Source: Eubacteriales bacterium
GTDB taxonomy: Bacteria; Bacillota; Clostridia; Oscillospirales; CAG-272
DNA length: 64,000 bases
Reading direction: 5' to 3'
Assembly (NCBI GenBank): GCA_045632405.1
Contig: JAZQWO010000029.1
Location: 17,614-81,613 of the forward strand
Below, one piece after another: positions 7,706 through 63,352 of this stretch; the first letter of the stretch is position 1; every line of letters starts with the position of its first letter. The translations under genes and the position numbers were made by a program. Under the pieces are notes generated by a model. It did not search any database. It was not told the origin of the DNA and saw only the letters and a list, made by a program, of their open reading frames with translations.

Positions 7706-9172
7706 TTACAATATTATGCAGATTAAACCGTTTGAGCCTTCGTTGATAACGCGCGTTAATGTGTCCGACAGCTTGCCACGTGATTCTTGAGTTATATGAG
7801 CAAGCTTGGTGTGTAGGCTATCGCTTACTAATTCATAAAGGGATTTTCCAAGCATATTGAAATCCCAAAGTCGTTGCGGGTCCTCTTGATATTCGTCAAG
7901 CATAAGCCGTACAATTTCATCTGCCTGCTCAGCTGTGCCAACTATGGGGTTTACTTCCGCTTCAATATTTGCCTTTATCATATGTATTGATGGTGCGGTT
8001 GCCTTTAACCGTATGCCGTGGGCGCCTGCTTGCTTTGACATCTCCGGCTCATTTAATGTCATATCATTAACACCTGGCAAAACGATTCCATAGCCTGTTG
8101 CGTTGACCTCATCAATTGCACTTGCAAATTTGTCAAATTCTCGCTTTGTTTCGGAGAGACTCTTAATGTTGCGGAATAAATCCTCCTCGTCTTTTATGTC
8201 GATTTCGCACATTTCACTGATAATCTTGTAATATAGCTCAGGCAAAAGCTGAATATCAACATCAATTTCTCCCGTTCCTAAGTGGCACGTGAAATTAGGC
8301 TCGCCATCAACATATTCGTTTGACGCAATTTGCTTGGCGATGCTTTTAGCATCGTCTATTTTGTTTGTGGGTGATACCGCGTTTTTAATCGTGTTAATCA
8401 GGCTTTGGTGTAACCAATGATTTTTTTCAAGTGATGAAAAATATTTTGGGAAGTGACACCTGATTTCTGTGGCAGAAAACTGTCCAAGCAGCAATTCGAT
8501 TATTCCGTCAAAATCCTCTTTCCCAAGCTCTAATGCATTGATAAGTGCCACAGGAGCGCCATATTTTTCCTCAAGCGAAAAAGCAAGGCTTTGCGCCTCT
8601 TGTGATTCAGGCTTGCTTGAATTTAAAACTATTACAAAAGGCTTTTTTGCCGTCTTTAGCTCGTTTATAACTCGTTCCTCACTTGGTATATAGCTTTCTC
8701 TCGGTATGTCTCCTATAGTGCCGTCAGTTGTTACCACAATTCCCACAGTGGAGTGCTCGCTTATAACCCGTCTTGTTCCAATCTCCGCCGCGCGCTCAAA
8801 CTCCATGGGCTCCTTGTCCCACGGTGTTGTTACCATTCTGATTTCGCCGTTTTCCTCTCCGCCAATAGCACCGTCAACTAAGTAACCTACACAGTCAATG
8901 AGTCGCACCTTCATTTTTGAGCTGCCAATCGAAACCTCAACCGCTTCGTCAGGAACAAATTTTGGCTCAGTTGTCATAATTGTTCTGCCTGATGCACTTT
9001 GAGGCGTTTCGTCAAGAGCGCGTTCTCGGTTGTAGCCCTGTCCCATATTGGGAATAACAATGGAATTCATAAACTGTTTAACAAATGTAGATTTTCCGCT
9101 GCGCACAGGGCCGACAACACCTACGTAAATCTCTCCGTTTGTCCTTTTTGCAATGTCCTCATACAAGTTCAT
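7706..9172 (-). CDS. spoIVA: Stage IV sporulation protein A (spore coat morphogenetic ATPase)
   Basis: MNLYEDIAKRTNGEIYVGVVGPVRSGKSTFVKQFM contains the Walker A motif typical of SpoIVA. The product is about 488 aa and ends ...GLICIIL. The start was chosen at the internal ATG at 9172. Confidence 0.9.
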   Translation of the reverse strand: MNLYEDIAKRTNGEIYVGVVGPVRSGKSTFVKQFMNSIVIPNMGQGYNRERALDETPQSASGRTIMTTEPKFVPDEAVEVSIGSSKMKVRLIDCVGYLVDGAIGGEENGEIRMVTTPWDKEPMEFERAAEIGTRRVISEHSTVGIVVTTDGTIGDIPRESYIPSEERVINELKTAKKPFVIVLNSSKPESQEAQSLAFSLEEKYGAPVALINALELGKEDFDGIIELLLGQFSATEIRCHFPKYFSSLEKNHWLHQSLINTIKNAVSPTNKIDDAKSIAKQIASNEYVDGEPNFTCHLGTGEIDVDIQLLPELYYKIISEMCEIDIKDEEDLFRNIKSLSETKREFDKFASAIDEVNATGYGIVLPGVNDMTLNEPEMSKQAGAHGIRLKATAPSIHMIKANIEAEVNPIVGTAEQADEIVRLMLDEYQEDPQRLWDFNMLGKSLYELVSDSLHTKLAHITQESRGKLSDTLTRVINEGSNGLICIIL

Positions 9173-14395: not shown

Positions 14396-14655
14396 CTAAA
14401 ATGGGCAGGTAAACCGATGAGAAAGAGTAGTAACTGAGTGAGAAATGGTAAAGAGAGATGCAGGCGGTGGGATTGCATTACAGGGACCTTGGCGAATGGA
14501 CTTTTGAGGGCGGTGCTGAAGGTAAGTAGGCACTGACGGAAATGCACCGTTATAGGCATAGCGCATAGCGTAGTGCGCGTATGAGAAGTAAATTGGGTGG
14601 TACCACGATATATTCGTCCCAAGTGTCTTTACGGACACTTGGGCTTATTTTTTTG
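14396..14655 (+). promoter_or_regulatory. T-box leader (tRNA-Trp sensing) controlling trpS
   Basis: T-box sequence AAATTGGGTGGTACCACG at 14590-14607. Terminator GTCCCAAGTGTC / GACACTTGGGC plus a T run at 14616-14654. Stem-I-like GAGAAAGAGTAG. A TGG triplet at 14446-14448 sits where the specifier codon would be expected. Confidence 0.85.
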
Positions 14656-14671
14656 AAAAGAGGAGAAAAAT

Positions 14672-15676
14672 ATGTTTAACGATAAGAAAGTAGTTTTTTC
14701 AGGCGTACAGCCTTCAGGCAATTTAACAATAGGCAATTACCTTGGCGCAATTAAAAATTTCAGCGCATTTTCCGATGAATATCATTGCTATTATTGTGTA
14801 GTAGATATGCACGCAATCACCGTTCGCCAGGTGCCTGCTGAATTAAGACGCAGAACATATGAAACACTGGCACTTTATATGGCTTGCGGCCTTGACCCAC
14901 AGAAGAACACCTTGTTTGTGCAGAGCCACGTGCCACAGCACGCAGAGCTTGGCTGGGTTCTTGACTGCTATACTATGTTTGGAGAGCTTTCACGTATGAC
15001 ACAGTTTAAGGACAAGAGCGCTAAGAATGCAGATAACATTAATGCAGGCTTGTTTACATATCCTGCACTTATGGCGGCTGATATTTTGCTTTATCAAACA
15101 GAGCTTGTGCCTGTTGGACAGGACCAAAAGCAGCACTTGGAGCTTGCTCGTGATATTGCTAACCGCTTTAATCAGGTATATGGGGAAACCTTTGTTGTTC
15201 CCGATGGCTATATTGCTAAGGACGGCGCTAAGATTATGTCCTTGCAGGAGCCAACAAAGAAAATGAGCAAGTCCGATGCTAATGAAAATGCCGTTGTTCG
15301 TATTCTTGACACAAAGGACGATATTATCAGAAAGTTCAAAAGAGCAGTAACAGACTCAGGTAACGAAATTGTTCGCGGAGAGGGCAAGGACGGTATTTCC
15401 AACCTTCTTACCATTTACTCCTGCTTCACAGGTAAAACCATCGAGGAGTGCGAGCGCGAGTTTGCAGGCAAGGGCTATGGCGAATTCAAGCTTGCAGTTG
15501 GTGAGGCTTGTGCAGATAGCCTTCAGCCTGTAAGAGAAGAGTTTGCTCGCTTAATGGCAGACAAGGCATATCTTGAGCAGGTTATGGCACAGGGCGCAGA
15601 GGAAGCATACAAAAACGCCCGCCGCACAATGTCAAAGGTTCGCCGCAAGATTGGCTTTACAGAAATAAAGCACTAA
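14672..15676 (+). CDS. trpS: Tryptophan--tRNA ligase
   Basis: Class I signature region GVQPSGNLTIGNYLGA and KMSKS (KKMSKSD); 334 aa. Confidence 0.95.
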   Translation: MFNDKKVVFSGVQPSGNLTIGNYLGAIKNFSAFSDEYHCYYCVVDMHAITVRQVPAELRRRTYETLALYMACGLDPQKNTLFVQSHVPQHAELGWVLDCYTMFGELSRMTQFKDKSAKNADNINAGLFTYPALMAADILLYQTELVPVGQDQKQHLELARDIANRFNQVYGETFVVPDGYIAKDGAKIMSLQEPTKKMSKSDANENAVVRILDTKDDIIRKFKRAVTDSGNEIVRGEGKDGISNLLTIYSCFTGKTIEECEREFAGKGYGEFKLAVGEACADSLQPVREEFARLMADKAYLEQVMAQGAEEAYKNARRTMSKVRRKIGFTEIKH

Positions 15677-25620: not shown

Positions 25621-27072
25621 TTACTCGATACTGCTTGAATTAAACACTACTGTATATTTACTTGCGTTCCATTGATCATCCCATTTGGGGTTTTCGCTAT
25701 TTCCGGCATAGTAAATTATAGCATCATTACGTAGCTTCCAAAATGCACCCTCGCCAACGTAATCAAGCTCATTTGGTAGAAAAATTTTGTGTAAATTCTT
25801 GCAATGAGAGAAGGCGTAATCATCAATATATATGACGCTGCTTGGTATAGTTATAATTTTAAGGGCGGCAGAACTATCAAAGGAATAATAGCCGATTTTT
25901 TCCAGCGTACCTGGCAGAGAGATTTCTTCTAATTTTGAGTTCTTATAAAATGCATAATTGCCTATTTCAGTAACTCCTTCATTAATCGCGAAGGAAACAT
26001 CACGTTTTCCGTCTGCGTACAGGACAAAAATTTTTCCATCCTTGCTAAAAATATGCCCGTCTACAGATTTATACTCTCGGTTGTTGGCGTCAACTGTATA
26101 TTCACTCAGAGAGGTGCACCCGATAAAAGAATAACCACGTATTTTACTCACGTTCTCAGAAATATAGAAGGAAGTGAGTGACGTGCATTCTCTAAAGGCA
26201 TAGTTTGGTATTTCCATAACCGTTTTTGGTATGGTAACAGATGTGAGACTTGCGCATCGGTCAAAGGCGCCAAATGTTAAATTTCCTGTTAAAACTACCT
26301 CGCGCAAAGATAGTGGAATATAATATTCCGCTACATAACTGGCATTTATATATGGGGAGGGGTAGGCTTGCTTTGCTAAATAAGTACTTTCAAAAAACTC
26401 TTTGCCAAAAATATAACCAAGTAACGCTTCTTTGCCTGTTGCGTCAGCACTTTTTCCTACGAAAGGAATAGTTATTTTCTGTAAATTACTACACCCCTTA
26501 AAAGCACCCTCTTCAATAGTAAGAATTGAGCTTGGAATATATATTTCAGAGAAATTACCGTTATTAAATGATGTAGCTCCAATATACTCCACGGGCAATC
26601 CCTCATATTTACTGGGAATAATAATGATATCATTTTGGCAGTTACCTAAGCTAACCTCGTATCCGGATTCACTTTTGTTCAAGGTAAACTCTAAATCTTC
26701 CGTAAAATATTTGATTCTACAATACTCGCACGTTCCGTCTACAAAGCTATGCTCATTTTTCGCAATTATCTCTTGCTCTACAAGAATCTTGTCACATAGG
26801 CTGCATCGTACACCCGCGGTTAAGCCCGTGCTTGAACACGAAGGGGTAACTGACTCTAGCAATATCTCAGTGTGTCCTGTGGGCTTAATGGCTTCTGTTT
26901 TTGAAAGCCCACAAAGGGAACAATGGGCGATTTTTGTGCCCATATCAACGCAGGTAGGAGCATTGATTGTTTCCCAATTTTTAAAATCATGATTACATTC
27001 TCCACAAGCGGTAAATAATAAAGATAGGCTTATAACAATGAAGCAAAGTATTAAAACAATTATATTTTTCAC
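25621..27072 (-). CDS. BspA-type leucine-rich-repeat lipoprotein with N-terminal Cys/His-rich repeats
   Basis: GTG start after AAGGAGGA. Signal peptide plus LLFTAC lipobox. Repeats of the type PxC...G.....CxxC.........GH. Then LRR_5-like repeats (AF..C..L..I.IP..V..I...AF). Confidence 0.8.
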   Translation of the reverse strand: MKNIIVLILCFIVISLSLLFTACGECNHDFKNWETINAPTCVDMGTKIAHCSLCGLSKTEAIKPTGHTEILLESVTPSCSSTGLTAGVRCSLCDKILVEQEIIAKNEHSFVDGTCEYCRIKYFTEDLEFTLNKSESGYEVSLGNCQNDIIIIPSKYEGLPVEYIGATSFNNGNFSEIYIPSSILTIEEGAFKGCSNLQKITIPFVGKSADATGKEALLGYIFGKEFFESTYLAKQAYPSPYINASYVAEYYIPLSLREVVLTGNLTFGAFDRCASLTSVTIPKTVMEIPNYAFRECTSLTSFYISENVSKIRGYSFIGCTSLSEYTVDANNREYKSVDGHIFSKDGKIFVLYADGKRDVSFAINEGVTEIGNYAFYKNSKLEEISLPGTLEKIGYYSFDSSAALKIITIPSSVIYIDDYAFSHCKNLHKIFLPNELDYVGEGAFWKLRNDAIIYYAGNSENPKWDDQWNASKYTVVFNSSSIE

Positions 27073-27191
27073 AAAGGATCCTCCTTAATATTAGTATCTA
27101 TATTATAGTACGAATATTTACTAAAGTCAACAGTAAAGTTATTTACTTGATATAATGAAACCACAAAATATTTTACGGAGTTGAGCAGCAT

Positions 27192-31188: not shown

Positions 31189-31217
31189 TTGACAATATAA
31201 AAGCCTTGTGATATAAT
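31189..31217 (+). promoter_or_regulatory. Sigma-A type promoter of the tRNA operon
   Basis: TTGACA (31189-31194), 17 nt, TGATATAAT (31209-31217). Confidence 0.7.
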
Positions 31218-31246: not shown

Positions 31247-31322
31247 GGCGGAATAGCTCAGAGGCTAGAGCATCCGGTTCATACCCGGCAGGTCATAGGT
31301 TCAAATCCCATTTCCGCCACCA
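31247..31322 (+). tRNA. tRNA-Met (anticodon CAT), elongator-like, CCA encoded
   Basis: Cloverleaf folded by hand: acceptor GGCGGAA/TTCCGCC, anticodon arm TCCGG-TTCATAC-CCGGC, T arm ATAGG-TTCAAAT-CCCAT. A lysidine-modified Ile2 identity cannot be excluded. Confidence 0.85.
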
Positions 31323-31327
31323 TAAAT

Positions 31328-31402
31328 GGCCCGTTGGTCAAGCGGTTAAGACACGGCCCTTTCACGGCTGTAACATGGGTTCGATTCCCGTACGGGTCAC
31401 CA
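31328..31402 (+). tRNA. tRNA-Glu (anticodon TTC), CCA encoded
   Basis: Acceptor GGCCCGT/ACGGGTC, anticodon loop CTTTCAC, T arm TGGGTTCGATTCCCG (stems TGGG/CCCG, with A-TGGG and CCCG-T giving one non-Watson-Crick end pair). Confidence 0.9.
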
Positions 31403-31412
31403 AAATAAAACT

Positions 31413-31443
31413 AAGTCGAACTTTGGTTCGACTTGTTTTATTT
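31413..31443 (+). terminator. Hairpin plus U-rich tract after tRNA-Glu (family AAGTCGAAC-N4-GTTCGACTT)
   Basis: A 9-bp stem with loop TTTG and tail GTTTTATTT. The same stem recurs at 34737-34767 and 41930-41958. Confidence 0.6.
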
Positions 31444-31634
31444 ATCCAAGCCGAAGGTTTGGTATGGCATCAGCCGTTAGGCTGTATGGAATCACATTTA
31501 TGTGTATGGCATCACCGTATGGTGCATTTCTTCGGCTTGATTCTATACGCCACAAAGTGGCAATTCCATACTGCAACAAGTTGCAGATTCCATACACGCT
31601 AAAGCGTGATTATATGCAACGCTTTGCGTTGATT
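31444..31634 (+). repeat. Hairpin-ladder element, copy 1 (candidate structured ncRNA or DNA site array)
   Basis: Seven hairpins at 31471-84, 31493-504, 31513-24, 31549-61, 31571-86, 31595-608 and 31617-31. They are separated by the linkers TATGGCAT, TATGGAAT, TATGGCAT // ATTCTATA, ATTCCATA, ATTCCATA, ATTATATG. CAAGCCGAAG (31447-56) is complementary to CTTCGGCTTG (31530-39). Confidence 0.7.
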
Positions 31635-31645
31635 GAGGTGAGCTT

Positions 31646-31999
31646 ATGAAGAAAAATTTGCTAATGGAATATAGCGAACAGTTAGCTGTTAATATGGTAA
31701 AGCTATGTAATGAAAATAAGTTTGACTCCAATGTAGTATTTCAAATCAAAAAATCTTCTTCAAGTGTATTTGCTAATATAACCGAAGCACAATACCCACA
31801 AAGCCTTGCTGATATGCACTCGAAATTTGAAATTGCAAGAAAAGAGTGTGCGGAAACCGAAAGTTGGCTAAAGCTTCTTTTCTCAACCGAAGCAATAAAC
31901 GAGGAAACCTTTAAAAAGCACAGAAACCTCTGCGGCAGAATCAAAAGAATGCTCACAAGCTCTATAATCACAATTGAAAACAAAATGAAGCAAGGCTGA
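31646..31999 (+). CDS. Four-helix-bundle protein (23S rRNA intervening-sequence protein / Avd-like family)
   Basis: 117 aa, all-helical. ...QIKKSSSSVFANITEAQ....S..D...KF.IARKECAETESWL.LL is typical of the TIGR02436/PF05635 family as I recall it. RBS GAGGTGA. Confidence 0.75.
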   Translation: MKKNLLMEYSEQLAVNMVKLCNENKFDSNVVFQIKKSSSSVFANITEAQYPQSLADMHSKFEIARKECAETESWLKLLFSTEAINEETFKKHRNLCGRIKRMLTSSIITIENKMKQG

Positions 32000-32020
32000 A
32001 AATTCAACCTTGCTTTTCTT
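31987..32020 (+). terminator. Terminator overlapping the 4HB gene stop codon
   Basis: AAGCAAGGCTGAA / TTCAACCTTGCTT stem with one mismatch, followed by a T-rich tract. A better-paired copy lies at 35010-35042. Confidence 0.6.
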
Positions 32021-32151
32021 TATTTTCAAAAATGCTTTGGACAGCTCTCGTTCAAGACAAGCACACGCCCGAAAACAAAATCGCAAATTTGGTGTAATTT
32101 TGGTAAGTAATGGTAAAAAGAAAAGTTATTTAATAAAAATTCTTATAACGA

Positions 32152-32180
32152 TTGAATTTTATTTTGTTTTGTGGTAAAAT
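32152..32180 (+). promoter_or_regulatory. Candidate promoter of the LRR-B gene
   Basis: TTGAAT (32152-57), 17 nt, TAAAAT (32175-80). Confidence 0.45.
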
Positions 32181-32330
32181 ATGTTTGCGACACATTTGAA
32201 TATTCCTGCAAGTAAGAGAGTACTATAGGTAAAAATGTACTCTCTCCCCTTGTTATTGGTGGAAAATGTGTCGCAACATTGAGAGAGGCGTTTTTCGTGC
32301 GTCTCTTAATGGGGCGCACTTTTTTATTTT
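32181..32330 (+). promoter_or_regulatory. Structured 5' leader of the LRR-B gene (candidate attenuator)
   Basis: ATGTTTGCGACACATTT (32181-97) pairs with AAATGTGTCGCAACAT (32264-79). An inner 9-bp hairpin is AGAGAGTAC/GTACTCTCT (32215-45). GTGCG...CGCAC plus T6 lies at 32297-32325. Confidence 0.4.
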
Positions 32331-32361
32331 GAAAAGAAAATATTTATTAAAGGAGAGTTTT

Positions 32362-34509
32362 ATGAAGCGCAAAATTTTACTAACATTCATTTTGGCAGCC
32401 ACCTTGATAGCCCTGTTTGCTATCTCCGTCAGCGCCGCCGAGCCTGTGGAAACATGGGACATTTCCGCAACGGCAAATGACAATGTAACTGCATATCTCT
32501 ACGAGGATACGGAAAATGAGGAATGCTACACTCTAACTATCAGCGGTACGGGTAATATGAAGAATTGGACAAGTGGCGGTACTCCTTGGTATTCTTCATA
32601 CAGTTCGAAAATCACCTCTGTCACAATTAAAAAAGGCGTTACAAGCATAGGCTCTTCAGCATTCGAGAAATGCAGAAAACTTACAAAGATAGAACTGCCA
32701 GATAGTTTGAAAAGAATAGGTAACGATGCATTCTATTATTGTGACACTCTTACTAGTATAGAATTGCAAAAAAATGTTACAAACATAGGGAATGATGCAT
32801 TTGTTAGTTGCTATAGTCTTATAGATATCAAAGTTGATGAGGAGAATACCATATACCAATCAATAGATGGAAACTTGTATTCCCATGATGGTAAAACTAT
32901 AATACAGTATGCACTAGGCAAAACTGATACATATTTTGTTATTCCGGATTTTGTGACAACTATAGGAGAAAGTGCATTTGAAAGTTGTTATCGTTTGAGA
33001 CATGTTTTACTACATAATGATGTAACTCGGATAGAAAGAAGCGCTTTTAATAGTTGTTCTAACATAAAGAGTATAAATATACCTGCTGGGGTGACATATA
33101 TAGGGGGCTTTGCTTTCGGCTTTTGTTATGATTTGACAATTTATGTCGAGGCTCAAGGCAAGCAAACTGAATGGGATCAATATTGGGATTATTCGTTCAA
33201 TGGACGAACAAAATGGGAGATAAGAGATAGTGGATTTTTGGAAGATGGTCTTGTTTGGCTAAAATTAAGCGACGACACGGTAACTATAGCAGGGTGTTTG
33301 TACGAAAAAGAAGAAGTTGAAATTCCCGATGTAATTAATGGATATAATGTTACTACTATCGGCAAAAATGCATTTCTCGAATCAGCATATTTAGAGACTG
33401 TAACAATTGGTAGCAACATAACAAATATAGATTATTCAGCATTTTCCGAATGTACAGCTTTGAAAAGTATAATCATAGGTGAAAACGTTAAAAAAATCTC
33501 TCATGAAGCTTTTAAGGGATGTACATCGTTAAAAGAAGTGGTGATACCGAACAATGTAACAATGATAGACTATGGTGCATTTTGGGGTTGCAAAAGTTTA
33601 ACAAGTGTAGTAATCAGCGATAGTGTAACAAGTATAGGCAATTATGCATTCGCTGGTTGCACAGAACTTGCAAACATCGTATTACCGTTTGTTGGCAACA
33701 CTTTGAACGGAACGAAGTTTACACATTTTGGCTATATATTCGGAGCATATTATGATACCGAAAACGATGAGTGTGTTCCCGCAAGTTTAAAGAGTGTTAC
33801 TGTAACTGGTGGAAACAGTATAAATTCCTATGCATTCTACAAATGTAATAACATAACAAGTATTGTTATCGGTGATGGCGTAACAAGCATAGGCAATTCT
33901 GCGTTTATTGGTTGCACGGGCCTAACAAGTGTGGTAATTCCAGATAGTGTAACAAACATAGGCAATTCTGCATTCTCTAGTTGCACAAGTCTCACAATCT
34001 ATTGCGAGGTTGCAAGTCAGCCAAGTGGATGGAGTACAAGTTGGAATCCTTTAAATTGTCCTGTTATTTGGGGCTATCTAGACAAAGAGGCTTGCTTGAT
34101 TAAAATCTTCACATTTAAGGGCTACTCCTTCAACGAGTCAGGCTCTATGGCTATAGGCTTTGACATTGATTATGAAGCAATCAGACTTTACGAAGAATTA
34201 ACAGACGAAAAGCTTGAAATTGGTGTATTGTTTGCAGGCTATGATTTGTTAAACGGACAAAATCCTCTTGATAATCAAGGTAATGCAATTGCTCTTGCAA
34301 GCGGCAAGGTTATAAAGAGTGATTTGACAAGCTATTCTTACTCCTATTATGACTTTATTTTGACTGATATAACAGGTGATATTTGTAACATTCCTCTTGT
34401 AATATCAGCATACATAAACAATGGTAGTGAAAGCTGGTATATCCAAGCAAATGGACTTAGCTCCACTGTAACAGGTATAACCTACAACGAAGCAAAGGAG
34501 AATAACTAA
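32362..34509 (+). CDS. BspA-type leucine-rich-repeat surface protein with a C-terminal module of about 135 aa shared with the 37951 gene
   Basis: ATG at 32362 follows AAGGAGAG. Signal peptide MKRKILLTFILAATLIALFAISVSA. Many LRR_5-type repeats (..IG..AF..C..LTS..IP..V..IG). The gene is AT-rich compared with the core genes. Confidence 0.85.
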   Translation: MKRKILLTFILAATLIALFAISVSAAEPVETWDISATANDNVTAYLYEDTENEECYTLTISGTGNMKNWTSGGTPWYSSYSSKITSVTIKKGVTSIGSSAFEKCRKLTKIELPDSLKRIGNDAFYYCDTLTSIELQKNVTNIGNDAFVSCYSLIDIKVDEENTIYQSIDGNLYSHDGKTIIQYALGKTDTYFVIPDFVTTIGESAFESCYRLRHVLLHNDVTRIERSAFNSCSNIKSINIPAGVTYIGGFAFGFCYDLTIYVEAQGKQTEWDQYWDYSFNGRTKWEIRDSGFLEDGLVWLKLSDDTVTIAGCLYEKEEVEIPDVINGYNVTTIGKNAFLESAYLETVTIGSNITNIDYSAFSECTALKSIIIGENVKKISHEAFKGCTSLKEVVIPNNVTMIDYGAFWGCKSLTSVVISDSVTSIGNYAFAGCTELANIVLPFVGNTLNGTKFTHFGYIFGAYYDTENDECVPASLKSVTVTGGNSINSYAFYKCNNITSIVIGDGVTSIGNSAFIGCTGLTSVVIPDSVTNIGNSAFSSCTSLTIYCEVASQPSGWSTSWNPLNCPVIWGYLDKEACLIKIFTFKGYSFNESGSMAIGFDIDYEAIRLYEELTDEKLEIGVLFAGYDLLNGQNPLDNQGNAIALASGKVIKSDLTSYSYSYYDFILTDITGDICNIPLVISAYINNGSESWYIQANGLSSTVTGITYNEAKENN

Positions 34510-34510
34510 A

Positions 34511-34678
34511 ATGAAATATACAACTCCAACATATAACAAAGAAACAATAGAAACAGAGGACATTATTTTAGCTTCAAGCGGAGTAATTGATTTAGGCAAT
34601 GGCACAAGCTTAACAGAAACAGCTGATGGAAACGCTAACGTTTTGGCAAGCGTTCTTGATATTTTAGGCTTAAGATAA
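34511..34678 (+). CDS. 55-aa microprotein, possibly translationally coupled to LRR-B
   Basis: The ATG lies 1 nt after the LRR-B stop codon. Product: MKYTTPTYNKETIETEDIILASSGVIDLGNGTSLTETADGNANVLASVLDILGLR. It is not in the ORF track because it is shorter than 60 aa, and it has no separate RBS. Confidence 0.4.
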   Translation: MKYTTPTYNKETIETEDIILASSGVIDLGNGTSLTETADGNANVLASVLDILGLR

Positions 34679-34720
34679 AAGGCTTAATTAGATTTAATTT
34701 CAATATAGCTTGGCACCTGC

Positions 34721-35042
34721 TCACCAAAATAAAACTAAGTCGAACTTCGGTTCGACTTGTTTTATTTATCCAAGCCGAAGGTTTGGAATGGAATCACCGT
34801 AAGGTGCATGGAATCAGTCGCACAGCGACTGTATGGCATCAATCGTTAGATTGTATTGTTTTTTGCTTCAGTTTGATTCCATACGACACTGTGTGTCAAT
34901 TCCATGCTGCAACAGGTTGCAAATTCCATACACGCTATGCGTGAGTTCACACAATGCGTTGCATTGATTTTAACAATTTCCAAACCCACGCACCACAATT
35001 GAACAAAAACAAAGCAAGGCTGAAATTCAGCCTTGCTTTTCG
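34721..35042 (+). repeat. Direct-repeat copy 2 of the module at 31397-32020 (terminator hairpin, hairpin ladder, 3' remnant of the 4HB gene, terminator)
   Basis: Positions 34721-34787 are nearly identical to 31397-31463, with one loop mismatch. The ladder at 34768-34968 is diverged but has the same 3+4 hairpin layout. CACAATTGAACAAAAACAAAGCAAGGCTGA matches the last codons of the 4HB gene. The 4HB ORF itself is absent. Confidence 0.75.
34737..34767 (+). terminator. Terminator hairpin after LRR-B and the microprotein (AAGTCGAAC family)
   Basis: AAGTCGAAC ttcg GTTCGACTT followed by GTTTTATTT. Confidence 0.6.
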
Positions 35043-59497: not shown

Positions 59498-62400
59498 ATG
59501 AAAAGATTTTTATATTTAGCATTGTGTTTTATCATCGCTTGCGCAATGACTCTTTGCTTTGTAGCATGCGGCGACGAAACACCGGAAAGCACTGCAAGTA
59601 GCGCAGATACTAACAGCTCTGACACTACAAGCAGCACAAGTGGAACAGGCACCTCTTCAGGTGACACAACAAGCTCCACAGAACAACCACAACCACCCGC
59701 TCACGAGCATACATATGAGGATGTTCTTTCATATGATGAAAATGAGCACTTCTACAAGGCAAACTGTGAGCACACAGATGAGAAGAAGGATGCTGAAGCG
59801 CATACCTTTAACAAGATCACAGGCTTCTGCGTATGCGGCTATTACACTGAGCCAAGCATAACAGATGCTCTTGAGTCTATTCTCGCTAACAGAGATTCTG
59901 TTACAAGCGGCACAATTGTTGACTTTACAGACAACAAGGAATTCAACGTGAAGACAACAGCAACATATACATATTCATTCTATGACAATTATGTATATAT
60001 CAAGGAAGAGAGCGACTATTTGAACGAGTACTACTATGCATATGACAAAAACGGCAGCGTTTTTGGTGTTGTAGTACAAACAACAGAGTATAGCTCATTT
60101 GTTAACCGTGACGATGCTGCGTATGAAGATAATATGAACGGTCCGCTCCTTAACTTTAACTTCATAGGCGACAATGAAAACAATGCATATGGCGCTGAGG
60201 AGCTCATTTCTGCTCTTTATGAAATGGCAGCTGAAAACGTAAACGGTGACTTCTTCTCCGCACACGTTGAAGGTATGTTTACATTCGGCTTTGGTGTTCG
60301 TGTATTTGACGATTACCTTAACAACTTCTACGTTATAGCAGTAGCGTTTGAGGCTGATGGTGAAACAGGCGCACTTAAAAATGGTGCGGTTGTTGTTGAA
60401 AAGTATGCACAGACTAAGTACACAGAGGTTGACGGCTTGTTCGTTTTGAACGAGGGCGAAACACCAAACGCAACAACAACAATTGCTATTGCTCAGACAC
60501 AGGATGCTCTTGAAGAGAGCGAAAACCCATACGATCCTAGCAAGATTCTTGTTGATAGCTTCATTGTAACTGATGCACAGGGCGTTGATATTGAAGAGAC
60601 AACTATCAGAGTTGAAGCAGGCGGACAGATCAAGATTAAGTTCGCTAACATCGCACCTGAAACAGCTTTGTTCAGCCTTTGCACAACAGGCGTTGAAATT
60701 GTTAACAATGAGGATGGCACATCACCCGGATTCTTCCCATGGTTTAACTCATATGACAATTCTTATTCATTTAACATAAGCGATCCTGGCTCATATACAA
60801 TGACAGTATTTGTTGACGATATCGAGGTTGTAACAACAATTGAGGTTGCACTTAAGGTTCCAACAGCTATCTCCACACAGGTATATGATTCAGATATGAC
60901 AATTTTCAACAAGACAACAAAGGCAACTGTATATGCAGGCGCACCACTTTATTTGATGTCTTATGTTGATCCTGATTATGATGGCGCATATGTAGCAGAG
61001 CTTGTTGGCGAAGCAACAGGTGCTACATTAGAGGCTGCTGAGCTTGATGGCGTGGCTTGCACGTTGTTCAAGGCACAGACAGTAGGCACATACCAGGTTA
61101 AGGTTACATCTACTGTTAAGTCAAGCTTGAGCGCAACACTTACAATCACAGTTGAAGAGGCACCTTCACTTGATACATTGCTTTCAGGCGAGTACATTGG
61201 CAGAGATGAATTTGCTATGACCCCTGTAAAGGTTACATTTGATAGCGCAGCTAAGACAGCAGAGGTTGTATATACAGATGCTCTTAACGGCGACTTGACA
61301 GCAACAATTTCATTTACAACAGAAAATGGCTTTGAGTACACATTGACAAGCGGCGACGACTTCATCGAAGAGTTCTACATCTCCGAAAGCTATGAGCTCG
61401 TTATCGTTATCTATGGTGAAAAGTATGTTCTTGAGGCTGTTGCAAAGGATATTGTAGCAACAGGTACAATCGTTGTTGAAGACGTTATAAACAACGGCAA
61501 GGACAGCGCTACATACACATTTGAGCTTGACGCTGACGGCAAGTTCACATTCTATAAGGCTGGTGTTGCAACAACCGAAATCTCTATCAGAGACGACGGA
61601 ACAGGCTATGCATTCAAGTTCCCGGGTGCTGGCTTTGAGCTCGCCCTTACAAAGACAAGCGGTGAAGAAGGCTTGGCAGGTAGCTATGCCGGAAACTTTG
61701 GAAACTTTGGCTTGATTGCAAATGTTACAATTACAGTAGATGCTGAGGAACAGCCTGTTAAGGAATCCACAACAGGTACTCTTATCGTTGCGCATCTTGA
61801 CAACAATGGTAAGTACAGCGGAACATACACATATGAAATCGTTGACGGCGCATTCGTATTCTATAAGGATGGCGCAGTAACAACAGACGTTTCTCTCACA
61901 GGCTCTGAGGGAGTTTACTCCTTCAAGTTCCAGGGCGTAGGTACTGCTCAGATTCTTGAAAAGACATCTGGCGAAGAGGGTACATTGGCAGGTGTATATA
62001 AGTGTGCAATGAACCTCGAAACAATGAGCTTCCACGTTGCAAACGTAACAATCACTCCTGACCCTGTTGATGATGGTGGCGATGAGCCAGCAGGCGAGCT
62101 TACAACAGGTACACTTGAATTCGTTGACAACAACAAAAATGCAAATTCCGGTACATTCACATACGCAATTGTAGATGGCGTATTTGTTTTCTATAAGGAT
62201 GGCGCAGTAACAACTGACATTATCATCACAATGAATCCAGACGGCACATACACATTCCAGTCCTTAAGCTGTTTAAAGCCACAGCCAATGGTTAAGGTTG
62301 AAGGCGAGGAAGGCGTTTTGGCTGGTAAGTACAACGTTAACTTTGTAATGGACGGTATGTACGTTCTCACATTCACTCCAGGCGAGATTGAACTCCCAAC

Positions 62401-63352
62401 TCCACCTGCAGAGAAGGAAACAGGTAAGCTCACTATCGTTGATAACAACAACGGTGCAGTTTCTGGTACATACACATATGAAGTAGTTGATGGCACATTC
62501 ATTATCTACAAGGATGGAACTGAAACATCAGACGTTATCATAACAATTGGACTTGATGGAAATTCATATACCTTCCAGGCTGTTAATTTGAAGTTGCCTC
62601 AGACACTTGTTAAGGTTGACGGCGAAGACGGCGTTCTTGCTGGTAAATATAATGTAAACTTCCCAACCGCTGCTACATATGTTCTTACATTCACTCCTGA
62701 CGGAGAAGATGTTGGCGGCGACGAAGGCGACGACGGAGATGACCCTGTAGTTGAAAGCACAGAGCTTGTTCTCGGCGACAACGCAGTTAGCGTTCCTGCA
62801 GGCGGTTGGGGTACTGATATCCCATTCACATCTGCTGAGGGTGGCAAGTTCACAATCAGTGCAGCAGCTGGCGAAACAAACGCAGTTGTAGTTGTGTTCT
62901 TGGCTGACGGTACTGCTGAAATGGTTACATTACCATACACATTTGAGGCTGCAGCAGGCGAGACAGTTACATTCAATATTTGTCCTGATAACTATGAAGA
63001 GGATGTAATTAATCTTGTAATTGCAGTTGCAGAAGAAGGTGGCAACAGTGGTAGCGAAGGCGGTTCTGCTACAGACGGTACATATTATGCTGCTCATGAT
63101 AATGGAACAACTGTAACTATGGTATTTACCAATACCACTGCTACATCAGGCGACATTTTCCTTACAAGAACTACTTCTTGGGGTACAACACAAGAGGTTT
63201 ATATGACATATGTCGTAGTTGATGGCGTTGTAACTCTTGCAGGTGCGAACGGTTCAAGCGTACCTTACGGTGCAGTTTTGACTGTTGGTGCAGATGGCAC
63301 ACCACTTACATACACATATAGTGGCGCAACATATGAGCTTGTAAAGCAGTAA
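59498..63352 (+). CDS. 1284-aa lipoprotein with four tandem repeats of about 105-110 aa
   Basis: RBS AGAAGGAGGA. Lipobox FVACGD and a Ser/Thr-rich linker. The repeat core is TGTL.....N.G..SGTYTYE.VDG.F.FYKDG..T.D.... Confidence 0.8.
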   Translation: MKRFLYLALCFIIACAMTLCFVACGDETPESTASSADTNSSDTTSSTSGTGTSSGDTTSSTEQPQPPAHEHTYEDVLSYDENEHFYKANCEHTDEKKDAEAHTFNKITGFCVCGYYTEPSITDALESILANRDSVTSGTIVDFTDNKEFNVKTTATYTYSFYDNYVYIKEESDYLNEYYYAYDKNGSVFGVVVQTTEYSSFVNRDDAAYEDNMNGPLLNFNFIGDNENNAYGAEELISALYEMAAENVNGDFFSAHVEGMFTFGFGVRVFDDYLNNFYVIAVAFEADGETGALKNGAVVVEKYAQTKYTEVDGLFVLNEGETPNATTTIAIAQTQDALEESENPYDPSKILVDSFIVTDAQGVDIEETTIRVEAGGQIKIKFANIAPETALFSLCTTGVEIVNNEDGTSPGFFPWFNSYDNSYSFNISDPGSYTMTVFVDDIEVVTTIEVALKVPTAISTQVYDSDMTIFNKTTKATVYAGAPLYLMSYVDPDYDGAYVAELVGEATGATLEAAELDGVACTLFKAQTVGTYQVKVTSTVKSSLSATLTITVEEAPSLDTLLSGEYIGRDEFAMTPVKVTFDSAAKTAEVVYTDALNGDLTATISFTTENGFEYTLTSGDDFIEEFYISESYELVIVIYGEKYVLEAVAKDIVATGTIVVEDVINNGKDSATYTFELDADGKFTFYKAGVATTEISIRDDGTGYAFKFPGAGFELALTKTSGEEGLAGSYAGNFGNFGLIANVTITVDAEEQPVKESTTGTLIVAHLDNNGKYSGTYTYEIVDGAFVFYKDGAVTTDVSLTGSEGVYSFKFQGVGTAQILEKTSGEEGTLAGVYKCAMNLETMSFHVANVTITPDPVDDGGDEPAGELTTGTLEFVDNNKNANSGTFTYAIVDGVFVFYKDGAVTTDIIITMNPDGTYTFQSLSCLKPQPMVKVEGEEGVLAGKYNVNFVMDGMYVLTFTPGEIELPTPPAEKETGKLTIVDNNNGAVSGTYTYEVVDGTFIIYKDGTETSDVIITIGLDGNSYTFQAVNLKLPQTLVKVDGEDGVLAGKYNVNFPTAATYVLTFTPDGEDVGGDEGDDGDDPVVESTELVLGDNAVSVPAGGWGTDIPFTSAEGGKFTISAAAGETNAVVVVFLADGTAEMVTLPYTFEAAAGETVTFNICPDNYEEDVINLVIAVAEEGGNSGSEGGSATDGTYYAAHDNGTTVTMVFTNTTATSGDIFLTRTTSWGTTQEVYMTYVVVDGVVTLAGANGSSVPYGAVLTVGADGTPLTYTYSGATYELVKQ
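61450..62720 (+). repeat. Intragenic tandem repeats (4 units of about 312-330 bp)
   Basis: TTCTATAAGGATGGCGCAGTAACAAC is identical at 61859-61884 and 62189-62214. Related cores lie near 61547 and 62503. Confidence 0.75.

Follow-up and report, generated by a model that had tools for sequence, protein, structure and literature searches.

We analysed a 64,000-nucleotide stretch of a contig from an Eubacteriales bacterium (the window), in which seven perfect short hairpins, three on a left arm and four on a right arm, lie at 34787-34966 (copy 2) as the diverged counterpart of a similar array at 31446-31631 (copy 1; ladder proper 31463-31631). Comparison with related loci demonstrates that copy 2 is an orphaned relic of a conserved, uncatalogued cis-element of ~200 nt. 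In its complete form, this element stands before a gene for a 117-aa four-helix-bundle protein of the PF05635 family, to which S23p, the 23S-rRNA-IVS protein, and Avd belong, and makes up with it a module of ~0.65 kb. To judge from the sequence comparisons below, the array may well be the docking site of the module's own protein.

An earlier note, made from the letters of the window alone, had reported these hairpins, and every element that it listed for copy 2 was recovered at its place, with (T)ATGGAAT and ATTCCAT(A) linkers separating the hairpins. The two copies do share the 3 + 4 layout, and their left arms are not collinear. Both paired changes quoted there are real, namely GCCAC/GTGGC to GACAC/GTGTC in hairpin 4 and CAACGC/GCGTTG to CAATGC/GCATTG in hairpin 7. 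Its central claim, that the hairpins themselves are maintained, is upheld by ~80 homologous loci with many two-sided changes.

Distribution and conservation of the element

Close homologues of the 117-aa protein number more than 1,500, and most of them come from very short metagenome contigs. Among species-representative genomes, a scan recovered 80 loci from animal-gut Clostridia, carried by Oscillospiraceae, Acutalibacteraceae, Christensenellaceae and Ruminococcus metagenome-assembled genomes. Nearly all loci with sufficient sequence (~80 species-level loci) have the same 3 + 3-4 plan upstream of the gene: a palindrome (A); three left units, each the linker TATG[G/T][A/C]AT plus a hairpin; a second element (A'') that repeats A in inverted orientation; right units, each the linker GATT[C/A]CATA plus a hairpin; and the ribosome-binding site of the gene. 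The right units number three or four, rarely up to ten. In one clade, a promoter takes the place of the ribosome-binding site directly after the array.

Each module follows immediately on the terminator of a tRNA or rRNA operon. A same-strand tRNA gene ends 218-281 nt before the ATG in about 50 of the 60 loci tested, and the tRNA is that for Glu, Met, Ala, Val, Lys, Cys, Thr, Asn, Arg, Pro or Asp; at one locus (L066), the module closes a complete rRNA operon. Similarity between loci runs from this terminator to the gene's own terminator and then ends. The flanks are unshared, with 468 neighbouring open reading frames (ORFs) falling into 392 clusters, and no conserved integrase, transposase or reverse transcriptase neighbour was found within 4-5 kb at the ~80 loci. 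A conserved partner gene of these kinds was also rejected from the ORFs of the window and of the flanks. A phage origin was rejected as well, since IMG/VR yielded neither a relative of the gene nor a true ladder.

Rfam 15 has no family that matches the ladder. In the window only a T-box and the tRNAs reach threshold, and the best sub-threshold scores on the ladder are ~19 bits against cut-offs of 75-90; the related loci likewise match no Rfam family. Metagenome matches to the DNA pattern were rejected as ladders, since nearly all of the 120 lack palindromic spacers and L345 is the only true ladder among them. Many of these contigs have multiple GATTCCAT matches each and are read as (GGAAT)n-like satellite. 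Positions 1-950 of L336 hold a satellite-like array of ~25 copies of a 26-nt unit (CCAAATCTGAAGGTTTGG + ATTCCATG) with ~8 inverted copies at the left, and this unit resembles palindrome A plus a right linker.

Pairing within the array is strongly conserved. In 82 ladders, 253 of the 304 segments between linkers form perfect hairpins (4 bp or longer), compared with 22 of 304 after segment shuffling, and the stems contain 1601 Watson-Crick pairs versus 36 others (12 G.T, 10 A.C and 14 other). A collinear alignment of the window clade (11 sequences) has 96.7% of its cells paired, with eight pairs changing on both sides, and sliding the partner column drops the pairing to 22-33%. A second clade (17 sequences) is 94.2% paired, with two-sided changes in 15 pairs and 85 cells, a covariation reached by none of 500 shuffles. 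In hairpin 7 the covariation is clean, with UA in 8 sequences, CG in 3 and no unpaired case. Hairpin 4 has weaker support: the paired change stands, but 3 of 11 relatives (L011, L013 and L019) have mismatched, apparently recombinant (chimeric) stems. The stems vary freely in sequence and length (4-8 bp) with their pairing kept, and the linkers are conserved. A and A'' covary in at least nine variants, the loop bases being included in the complementarity, and five of their pairs carry two-sided changes in the window clade.

Many of the two-sided changes are GC-to-CG or whole-hairpin swaps, which reflect unit replacement or shuffling and not stepwise compensation. Template-switch correction of quasi-palindromes during replication is a known process, and together with unit replacement it may help to keep the stems perfect; the covariation is thus not purely that of stepwise compensation. 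Hairpin types recur in varying order and number, and units are amplified in tandem in L023, L083 and L040. Three variants show recombination between units: an insertion of ~150 nt within the third left unit (L038, 4700-4860), a duplication of the third left unit (L065, 1800-1900) and, in L042 (4900-4997), a deletion that has fused the hairpins of the third left and last right units.

The linkers are polar and position-specific, the third left linker (L3) being almost always ATGGCAT or ATGTCAT. The loops are polar too: G..A in 91 of 185 left loops, which are mostly GYNA or GNA and not GRNA, and T..C in 127 of 273 right loops, their complement. About 84% of the loops are closed by a C-G pair, and 3-nt loops dominate on the right arm. 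Linker sense and loop polarity thus make each arm the mirror of the other. Each left linker contains an ATG (window 34787-34839; L050-L091), which in the ATGTAAT clade reads AUG-UAA, a start and then a stop, and in the L058 clade the left-linker ATG follows, at a distance of 6 nt, a perfect AAGGAGG located in the palindrome A loop. A leader peptide or upstream ORF was rejected because lengths and stop positions are not conserved and only 3-4 loci end at the start codon of the gene.

Other PF05635 subfamilies and a proposed role of the array

The intact gene of the window (31646-31996) matches PF05635 with a Pfam E value of 1.4e-19 and TIGR02436 of NCBIfam with an E value of 1.1e-20. The solved structure closest to its protein is PDB 2RLD (E = 8e-14), deposited with five chains.

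More than 7,800 relatives were found for each of two other PF05635 subfamilies. L042 carries a second PF05635 gene, too dissimilar for retrieval by the first search, behind a second array (8890-9126) that consists of an A-like hairpin, three to four GTGAAGT + hairpin units, a covarying A'', four ACTTCAC + hairpin units and a ribosome-binding site. Among the relatives of this gene, the GTGAAGT/ACTTCAC layout was present in all 20 loci read (L352-L373 listed), and it always comes directly after the stop codon of a U5-methyltransferase (RlmD/TrmA-like) with no intervening terminator. In this family, two right hairpins have a conserved sense-strand mismatch, a tandem G.A / A.G, which adjoins a compensatory T-A to C-G change.

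The Bacteroides homologues of 2RLD have arrays without hairpins on both sides, (AATTGAC)x4 upstream and (GTCAATT)x4 downstream; in a related species, AATTGAG / AATTGAT 14-mers take their place. These Bacteroidaceae genes (L374-L394) are inserted within operons (araD-araA; aminotransferase-DAHP synthase), and a 10-nt repeat CAATAAATTA, possibly a target duplication, is present at one site and at no other. In the 23S intervening sequence (IVS) of Coxiella, three to four tandem GACAGAT heptamers precede the start codon of S23p, and a 28-bp terminal stem is cut by RNase III (PMC4990558). S23p itself is a homopentameric ring (PMC4990558, citing Lin 2006).

The motif thus changes with the subfamily (ATGGAAT/ATGTAAT, GTGAAGT/ACTTCAC, AATTGAC, GACAGAT), which makes the protein the likely reader. 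This match of motif to protein subfamily, like the architecture, conservation, pairing and position of the array, is observed directly in the loci. Arrays of inverted short repeats with a subfamily-specific motif look like a hallmark of the PF05635 family, with the Clostridial ladders as the variant whose repeats are split by foldable spacers.

It is tempting to speculate, at a little below even chances, that the linkers are the cognate motif of a ring-forming protein, that the hairpins are foldable spacers in an array read single-stranded, and that the protein acts at the entrance of its own gene. The 8-nt linkers would then be the recognition motif for the ring, and the hairpins, free in sequence, would fold away in a single-stranded stretch and bring successive motifs side by side. 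Folded in this way, the array would mimic the contiguous heptads that flank PF05635 genes in Bacteroides and Coxiella. Bound to the array at the entrance of its gene, the protein may set expression, nucleate a working nucleoprotein, or both. A and A'' could provide an alternative fold or an inverted repeat that encloses the left arm.

Binding by the protein, a single-stranded state, a regulatory outcome and the choice of RNA or DNA strand are inferred from several features. Because the stems are 4-8 bp long, the spacing of the linkers in a duplex varies (20-25 bp); it becomes constant once the hairpins fold, which points to a single-stranded reading state. Homopentameric S23p rings (five chains in 2RLD) fit the 3-5 repeats per arm. 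At residue 62, the protein has E wherever the linkers are G-type (GGAAT; 31 of 31 loci) and K wherever they are T-type (GTAAT; 33 of 33); no other column of the alignment segregates perfectly, and the position is H or N in other PF05635 subfamilies. In the window, no sigma-70-like promoter was found between the tRNA terminator and the ATG of the 117-aa gene, so expression there must traverse the array. Promoter scans of the window and its relatives found no convincing antisense promoter directed into the ladder.

Several findings weigh against this model. The tree allows a single event for the E62/K62 switch, so that its link to the motif does not count as independently replicated and the association is suggestive only. 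Among 1637 stem pairs, G.T (12) is no commoner than A.C (10); the pattern is therefore unlike the usual signature of a one-strand RNA, and an assignment of the strand from wobble pairs was rejected as uninformative. A strong terminator stands before the array everywhere, and one clade has a good promoter (TTGATT-17-TATACT or TATAAT) between array and gene, with the array still conserved though outside that mRNA. The dominance of 3-nt loops is unlike typical structured RNAs, the loop polarity flips between the arms so that a single transcript would show the motif in a given sense on one arm only, and copy 2 keeps seven perfect hairpins with no gene in cis.

As to the strand that would be read, a read-through transcript is slightly favoured over unwound or extruded DNA. 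For RNA speak the lack of a promoter in the window, the arrays within transcripts in two other subfamilies, the IVS precedent and the sense-strand G.A motif. The absence of wobble enrichment, the 3-nt C-GNA-G loops, the dyad polarity, the upstream terminator, the clade promoter and the DNA-hairpin precedent of the diversity-generating retroelements (DGRs) speak for DNA.

More broadly, and with less confidence, PF05635 proteins (S23p, the rRNA intervening-sequence protein, and stand-alone Avd-like rings) might be sequence-specific single-strand readers of tandem 7-8-nt repeats, each subfamily with its cognate array. Gene and array would then form minimal and widespread modules, selfish and enzyme-less, at the 3' ends of stable-RNA or other host transcription units, and the Clostridial ligand would be read folded and single-stranded; we consider this doubtful. 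If true, it would give a testable function to the PF05635 family, reportedly unexplained since 1993, and to the nucleic-acid role of Avd in DGRs. Avd, a member of the family, is essential for the mutagenic homing of DGRs. The S23p/IVS family is very common and still termed uncharacterised in the literature; arrays of its own motif offer a concrete and cheaply tested hypothesis, in which each protein would bind its cognate array and residue 62 would be the candidate switch of specificity. The finding also adds an uncatalogued structured element to annotation and accounts for metagenome assemblies breaking at these loci behind tRNA genes.

Alternative explanations and known systems

The main rival to the docking model, unlikely in our judgement but the most serious, is a DNA mobility or recombination site. 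The inverted arrays would be element ends or arm-type sites, read by a recombinase or transposase in trans as extruded or single-stranded hairpins, and such reading by shape would resemble that of integron attC sites and DGR target hairpins. The modules stand behind many different tRNAs, several per genome, and their presence varies among strains; those of the window are stacked in tandem, with TCACCA and 70 nt repeated at 31397 and 34721. In L012, L019 and L044, a 13-18-nt copy of the tRNA 3' end lies ~115-133 nt after the gene, and the very short contigs that mostly bear the gene suggest assembly-breaking repeats. The strictly Watson-Crick pairing, the C-GNA-G type loops and the dyad-symmetric polarity would also suit such a site. 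The arrays of Bacteroides and of the rRNA intervening sequence flank the ORF like terminal inverted repeats (PMC4990558), and DGR targets need a DNA hairpin with free stem sequence and a strand-specific loop (PMC3240598). However, the module encodes no integrase or recombinase and has neither an integrase nor a transposase as a conserved neighbour within 4-5 kb, and the sole serine recombinase (L222-type loci) belongs to a separate island between tRNA and ladder. The two Clostridial arrays share one side of the gene, the search of viral contigs found no relative, and no direct repeat of at least 10 nt is detectable in most loci.

A structural RNA leader is appreciably less probable. Here a read-through transcript would fold into a row of hairpins that protects or processes the 5' end of the mRNA (RNase J, RNase III) with no specific protein partner. 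This would fit the window module, which lacks its own promoter, the arrays inside operon transcripts in two other subfamilies, the inverted repeats of rRNA intervening sequences, which are RNase III substrates (PMC4990558), and the significantly stable minimum free energy (MFE) folds (z = -2.9 for copy 1 and -4.4 for copy 2 versus dinucleotide shuffles). Such a leader would leave unexplained why the linkers are strongly conserved and why they change with the protein subfamily, and it is at odds with the lack of G.U enrichment, the promoter downstream of the array in one clade, the terminator upstream, and stems that at 5-7 bp are too short for RNase III. A duplex-DNA operator array is improbable in our view: the protein would bind both motif orientations like the omega repressor (pSM19035) and repress its own promoter or block read-through. 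Inverted arrays of short motifs immediately upstream of the gene, a clade-specific promoter whose -35 box overlaps the last unit, and the contiguous heptads of Bacteroides agree with an operator, but the palindromic spacers of free sequence would be left without a role, and a linker spacing of 20-25 bp does not keep the helical phasing. That the array has no function is very improbable. Shuffled palindromic repeats could in principle be kept perfect by mutation alone (template-switch correction, gene conversion, transposon footprints), as might be read from the lack of wobble bias, the duplicated and shuffled units of L023, L083 and L040, the chimeric stems of L011 and L019, and the persistence of copy 2 with no gene; yet at a protein identity of only 70%, different families of Clostridia retain the 3 + 3-4 layout, A, A'', the position-specific variants of the linkers and the polarity of the loops, and a second protein subfamily has the design again with another motif. 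The least probable explanation, largely refuted, is the true RNA ladder after which the earlier note had named the element and which the MFE prediction also implies; each left linker would pair with its right counterpart in register, giving stacked four-way junctions. RNAfold does pair the linkers in both window copies, and GTGAAGT and ACTTCAC are perfectly complementary. Across 45 loci, however, this pairing is not conserved: nested linkers score 22.4 of 27, parallel linkers 22.6 and arms swapped between loci 21.8, and there is no register-specific covariation. The C of L3 (ATGGCAT or ATGTCAT) has no matching right linker and leaves an invariant C.U mismatch, one clade has four different right linkers of which none is perfectly complementary to any left linker, the right units number 3 to 10, and pairing of A with A'' is topologically incompatible with a ladder.

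Among known systems, the S23p or 23S-rRNA-IVS elements (Coxiella, Leptospira, Brucella and bacteria of the Candidate Phyla Radiation, CPR) have a gene of the same family, PF05635. Like the module, they are small, promoter-less selfish inserts tied to stable-RNA operons, and their ORF is accompanied by inverted repeats of tandem short repeats (PMC4990558; bioRxiv 10.1101/2024.02.27.582315). They lie within 23S helix 25 or 45, whereas the module lies behind an operon terminator, 44 nt after tRNA-Glu, and has both arrays upstream of the ORF, repeats separated by hairpins, and the extra A and A''. Excision by RNase III is unlikely here, the possible left-right helices being 7-9 bp long and not conserved in register.

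In the DGR of Bordetella phage BPP-1, the accessory protein Avd shares its fold family with the 117-aa protein. BPP-1 requires a DNA hairpin just downstream of the variable repeat (VR), which is located at the target gene's 3' end; the stem may differ in sequence as long as it pairs, and the GRNA loop is sequence- and strand-specific (PMC3240598). In the ladder, the left-arm loops are mostly G..A and closed by C-G, but more often GYNA or GNA than GRNA. The window and flanks contain no pair of template repeat (TR) and VR, the repeat scan finding only the ladder copies and gene-internal repeats, and no ORF resembling a reverse transcriptase was seen in the window or as a recurrent neighbour in the ~80 loci. 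The ladder also has seven hairpins and not one, stems of 5-7 bp that are not especially GC-rich, and conserved 8-nt linkers.

The TRAP ring reads 11 (G/U)AG repeats on a single strand. It is like the proposed reader in being a homo-oligomeric ring with evenly spaced short motifs near a start codon and sequence-free spacers; the ladder differs in its motif of 7-8 nt, its hairpin spacers and its two orientations. The operators of the omega repressor of inc18 plasmids are contiguous duplex heptads for a ribbon-helix-helix dimer. They share with the ladder arrays of 7-bp repeats, direct and inverted, upstream of the protein's own operon, but have no palindromic spacers. The N4 hairpin promoters have stems of 5-7 bp and 3-nt loops, and C-GNA-G loops favour extrusion. 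Along with integron attC sites and the repetitive extragenic palindromes and bacterial interspersed mosaic elements (REP/BIME), these promoters resemble the ladder as short hairpins whose pairing is kept while the sequence drifts and which are intergenic, after terminators. In the ladder context, however, there is no integron integrase, RAYT or phage polymerase, and in REP the palindrome is conserved and the linker variable, the reverse of the ladder. A CRISPR array was rejected: the repeats are 8 nt long, the 'spacers' are palindromes shared between species, and there are no cas genes.

The two copies in the window and insertions at tRNA-Glu

The features of both copies are listed below.

Table 1. 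Features of the two module copies and their setting in the window
Feature	Position	Strand	Sequence or remark
tRNA promoter	31189-31217		perfect TTGACA-17-TATAAT
tRNA-Met	31247-31322	+	ARAGORN, Rfam
tRNA-Glu	31328-31402	+	ARAGORN, Rfam
Copy 1 two-way intrinsic terminator	31412-31435	.	AAGTCGAAC..GTTCGACTT; A-run before, T-run after; scan positive on both strands
Copy 1 palindrome A	31446-31462	+	CCAAGCC GAA GGTTTGG; covaries across species
Copy 1 left arm	31463-31524	+	three TATGG[C/A]AT + hairpin units: CAGCC/GGCTG, CACAT/ATGTG, CACC/GGTG
Copy 1 A''	31530-31539	+	CTTCGGCTTG; inverted left half plus loop of A
Copy 1 right arm	31540-31631	+	four units; linkers ATTC[T/C]ATA or ATTATATG
Ribosome-binding site	31635-40		GAGGTG; 3' of copy 1 right arm
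117-aa four-helix-bundle gene	31646-31999	+	PF05635 23S_rRNA_IVP, TIGR02436
Terminator of 117-aa gene	31988-32015		one stem half within the last codons; stem overlaps the stop codon
Strain-specific passengers between the copies	32266-34678	+	747-aa BspA-type leucine-rich-repeat surface protein; 55-aa ORF
Copy 2 5' segment	34721-34759	.	TCACCA, A-run, two-way terminator 34736-34759
Copy 2 palindrome A	34770-34786	+	CCAAGCCGAAGGTTTGG
Copy 2 left arm	34787-34853	+	three units; perfect hairpins of 4-7 bp
Copy 2 L1	34787-94		AATGGAAT, then CACC-GTAA-GGTG
Copy 2 L2	34807-14		CATGGAAT, then CAGTCGC-ACA-GCGACTG
Copy 2 L3	34832-39		TATGGCAT, then CAATC-GTTA-GATTG
Copy 2 centre, T-rich	34854-65	+	TATTGTTTTTTG
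Copy 2 A''	34866-75	+	CTTCAGTTTG
Copy 2 right arm	34876-34966	+	four units; perfect hairpins of 5-6 bp
Copy 2 R1	34876-83		ATTCCATA, then GACAC-TGT-GTGTC
Copy 2 R2			ATTCCATG, then TGCAAC-AG-GTTGCA
Copy 2 R3			ATTCCATA, then CACGC-TAT-GCGTG
Copy 2 R4, degenerate linker			AGTTCACA, then CAATGC-GTT-GCATTG; end at 34966
Remnant of copy 2 four-helix-bundle gene	35011-35039	+	last codons (..AAG CAA GGC TGA) + terminator

The copy 1 module begins immediately 3' of the CCA end of tRNA-Glu. Its order is tRNA-Glu ..TCACCA, A-run, two-way terminator, TTTTATTTAT, A, left arm, A'', right arm, GAGGTG and ATG. A'' lies directly 5' of the first right linker, and the right-arm hairpins are GCCAC/GTGGC, CTGCAAC/GTTGCAG, CACGC/GCGTG and CAACGC/GCGTTG. 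Many loci of the ATTCCAT clade (L013-L039; window 32060-32085) have a conserved motif ..GACTTGTATCAAGACAAGCACACGCC(A/T)CGGTGCCAAA 3' of the gene terminator, which ends like the acceptor 3' end of a tRNA and could be the right boundary of the module.

The first bases of copy 2, TCACCA, repeat the final 6 nt of tRNA-Glu. Only 44 nt separate its seventh hairpin from AAGCAAGGCTGA..GCCTTGCTT, the same motif of 27-28 nt that ends the intact gene at 31988. This short gap followed by the closing motif of the intact gene identifies copy 2 as a module with an internally deleted gene, whose remnant terminator is now shared with a convergent 762-aa gene.

The repeat finder aligned 31397-31472 with 34721-34796 (76 nt, 96% identity) and a further 85 nt at 81% identity in the right arms of the two copies. 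The palindrome A of copy 2 (CCAAGCC..) no longer matches its own A'' (CTTCAGTTTG), and in the orthologue of copy 2 in a sister strain (L001) A is CCAAACTGAAGGTTTGG, which does match CTTCAGTTTG. The first 76 nt of the older module have been homogenised with the newer copy 1, and the loss of this match in the window is the result. In L001 this orthologue follows the tRNA directly, with its gene intact; in the window, therefore, a second module and the BspA-type gene sit between the tRNA and the older module. The passengers between the copies are absent from sister strains.

The 3' end of tRNA-Glu is an insertion hotspot (window 31397-34735; L001-L011, L222-L231). Islands found there in sister strains carry AbiH, a DUF4379 protein, or a 190-nt remnant with a 20-nt tRNA-end repeat. 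Another holds a restriction-modification system and a large serine recombinase and ends exactly at ..|TCACCAAAAAA. The ladder module remains distal to the islands inserted at tRNA-Glu.

Elsewhere in the window, BspA-type leucine-rich-repeat or repeat-rich surface genes lie at 25621-27084 (-), 32266-34509 (+) and 61500-63000 (+), and the repeat finder detects internal DNA repeats of ~69 nt and ~315-330 nt in these surface genes. A T-box leader (Rfam, 110 bits) at 14408-14624 (+) is located upstream of the ORF at 14657-15676.

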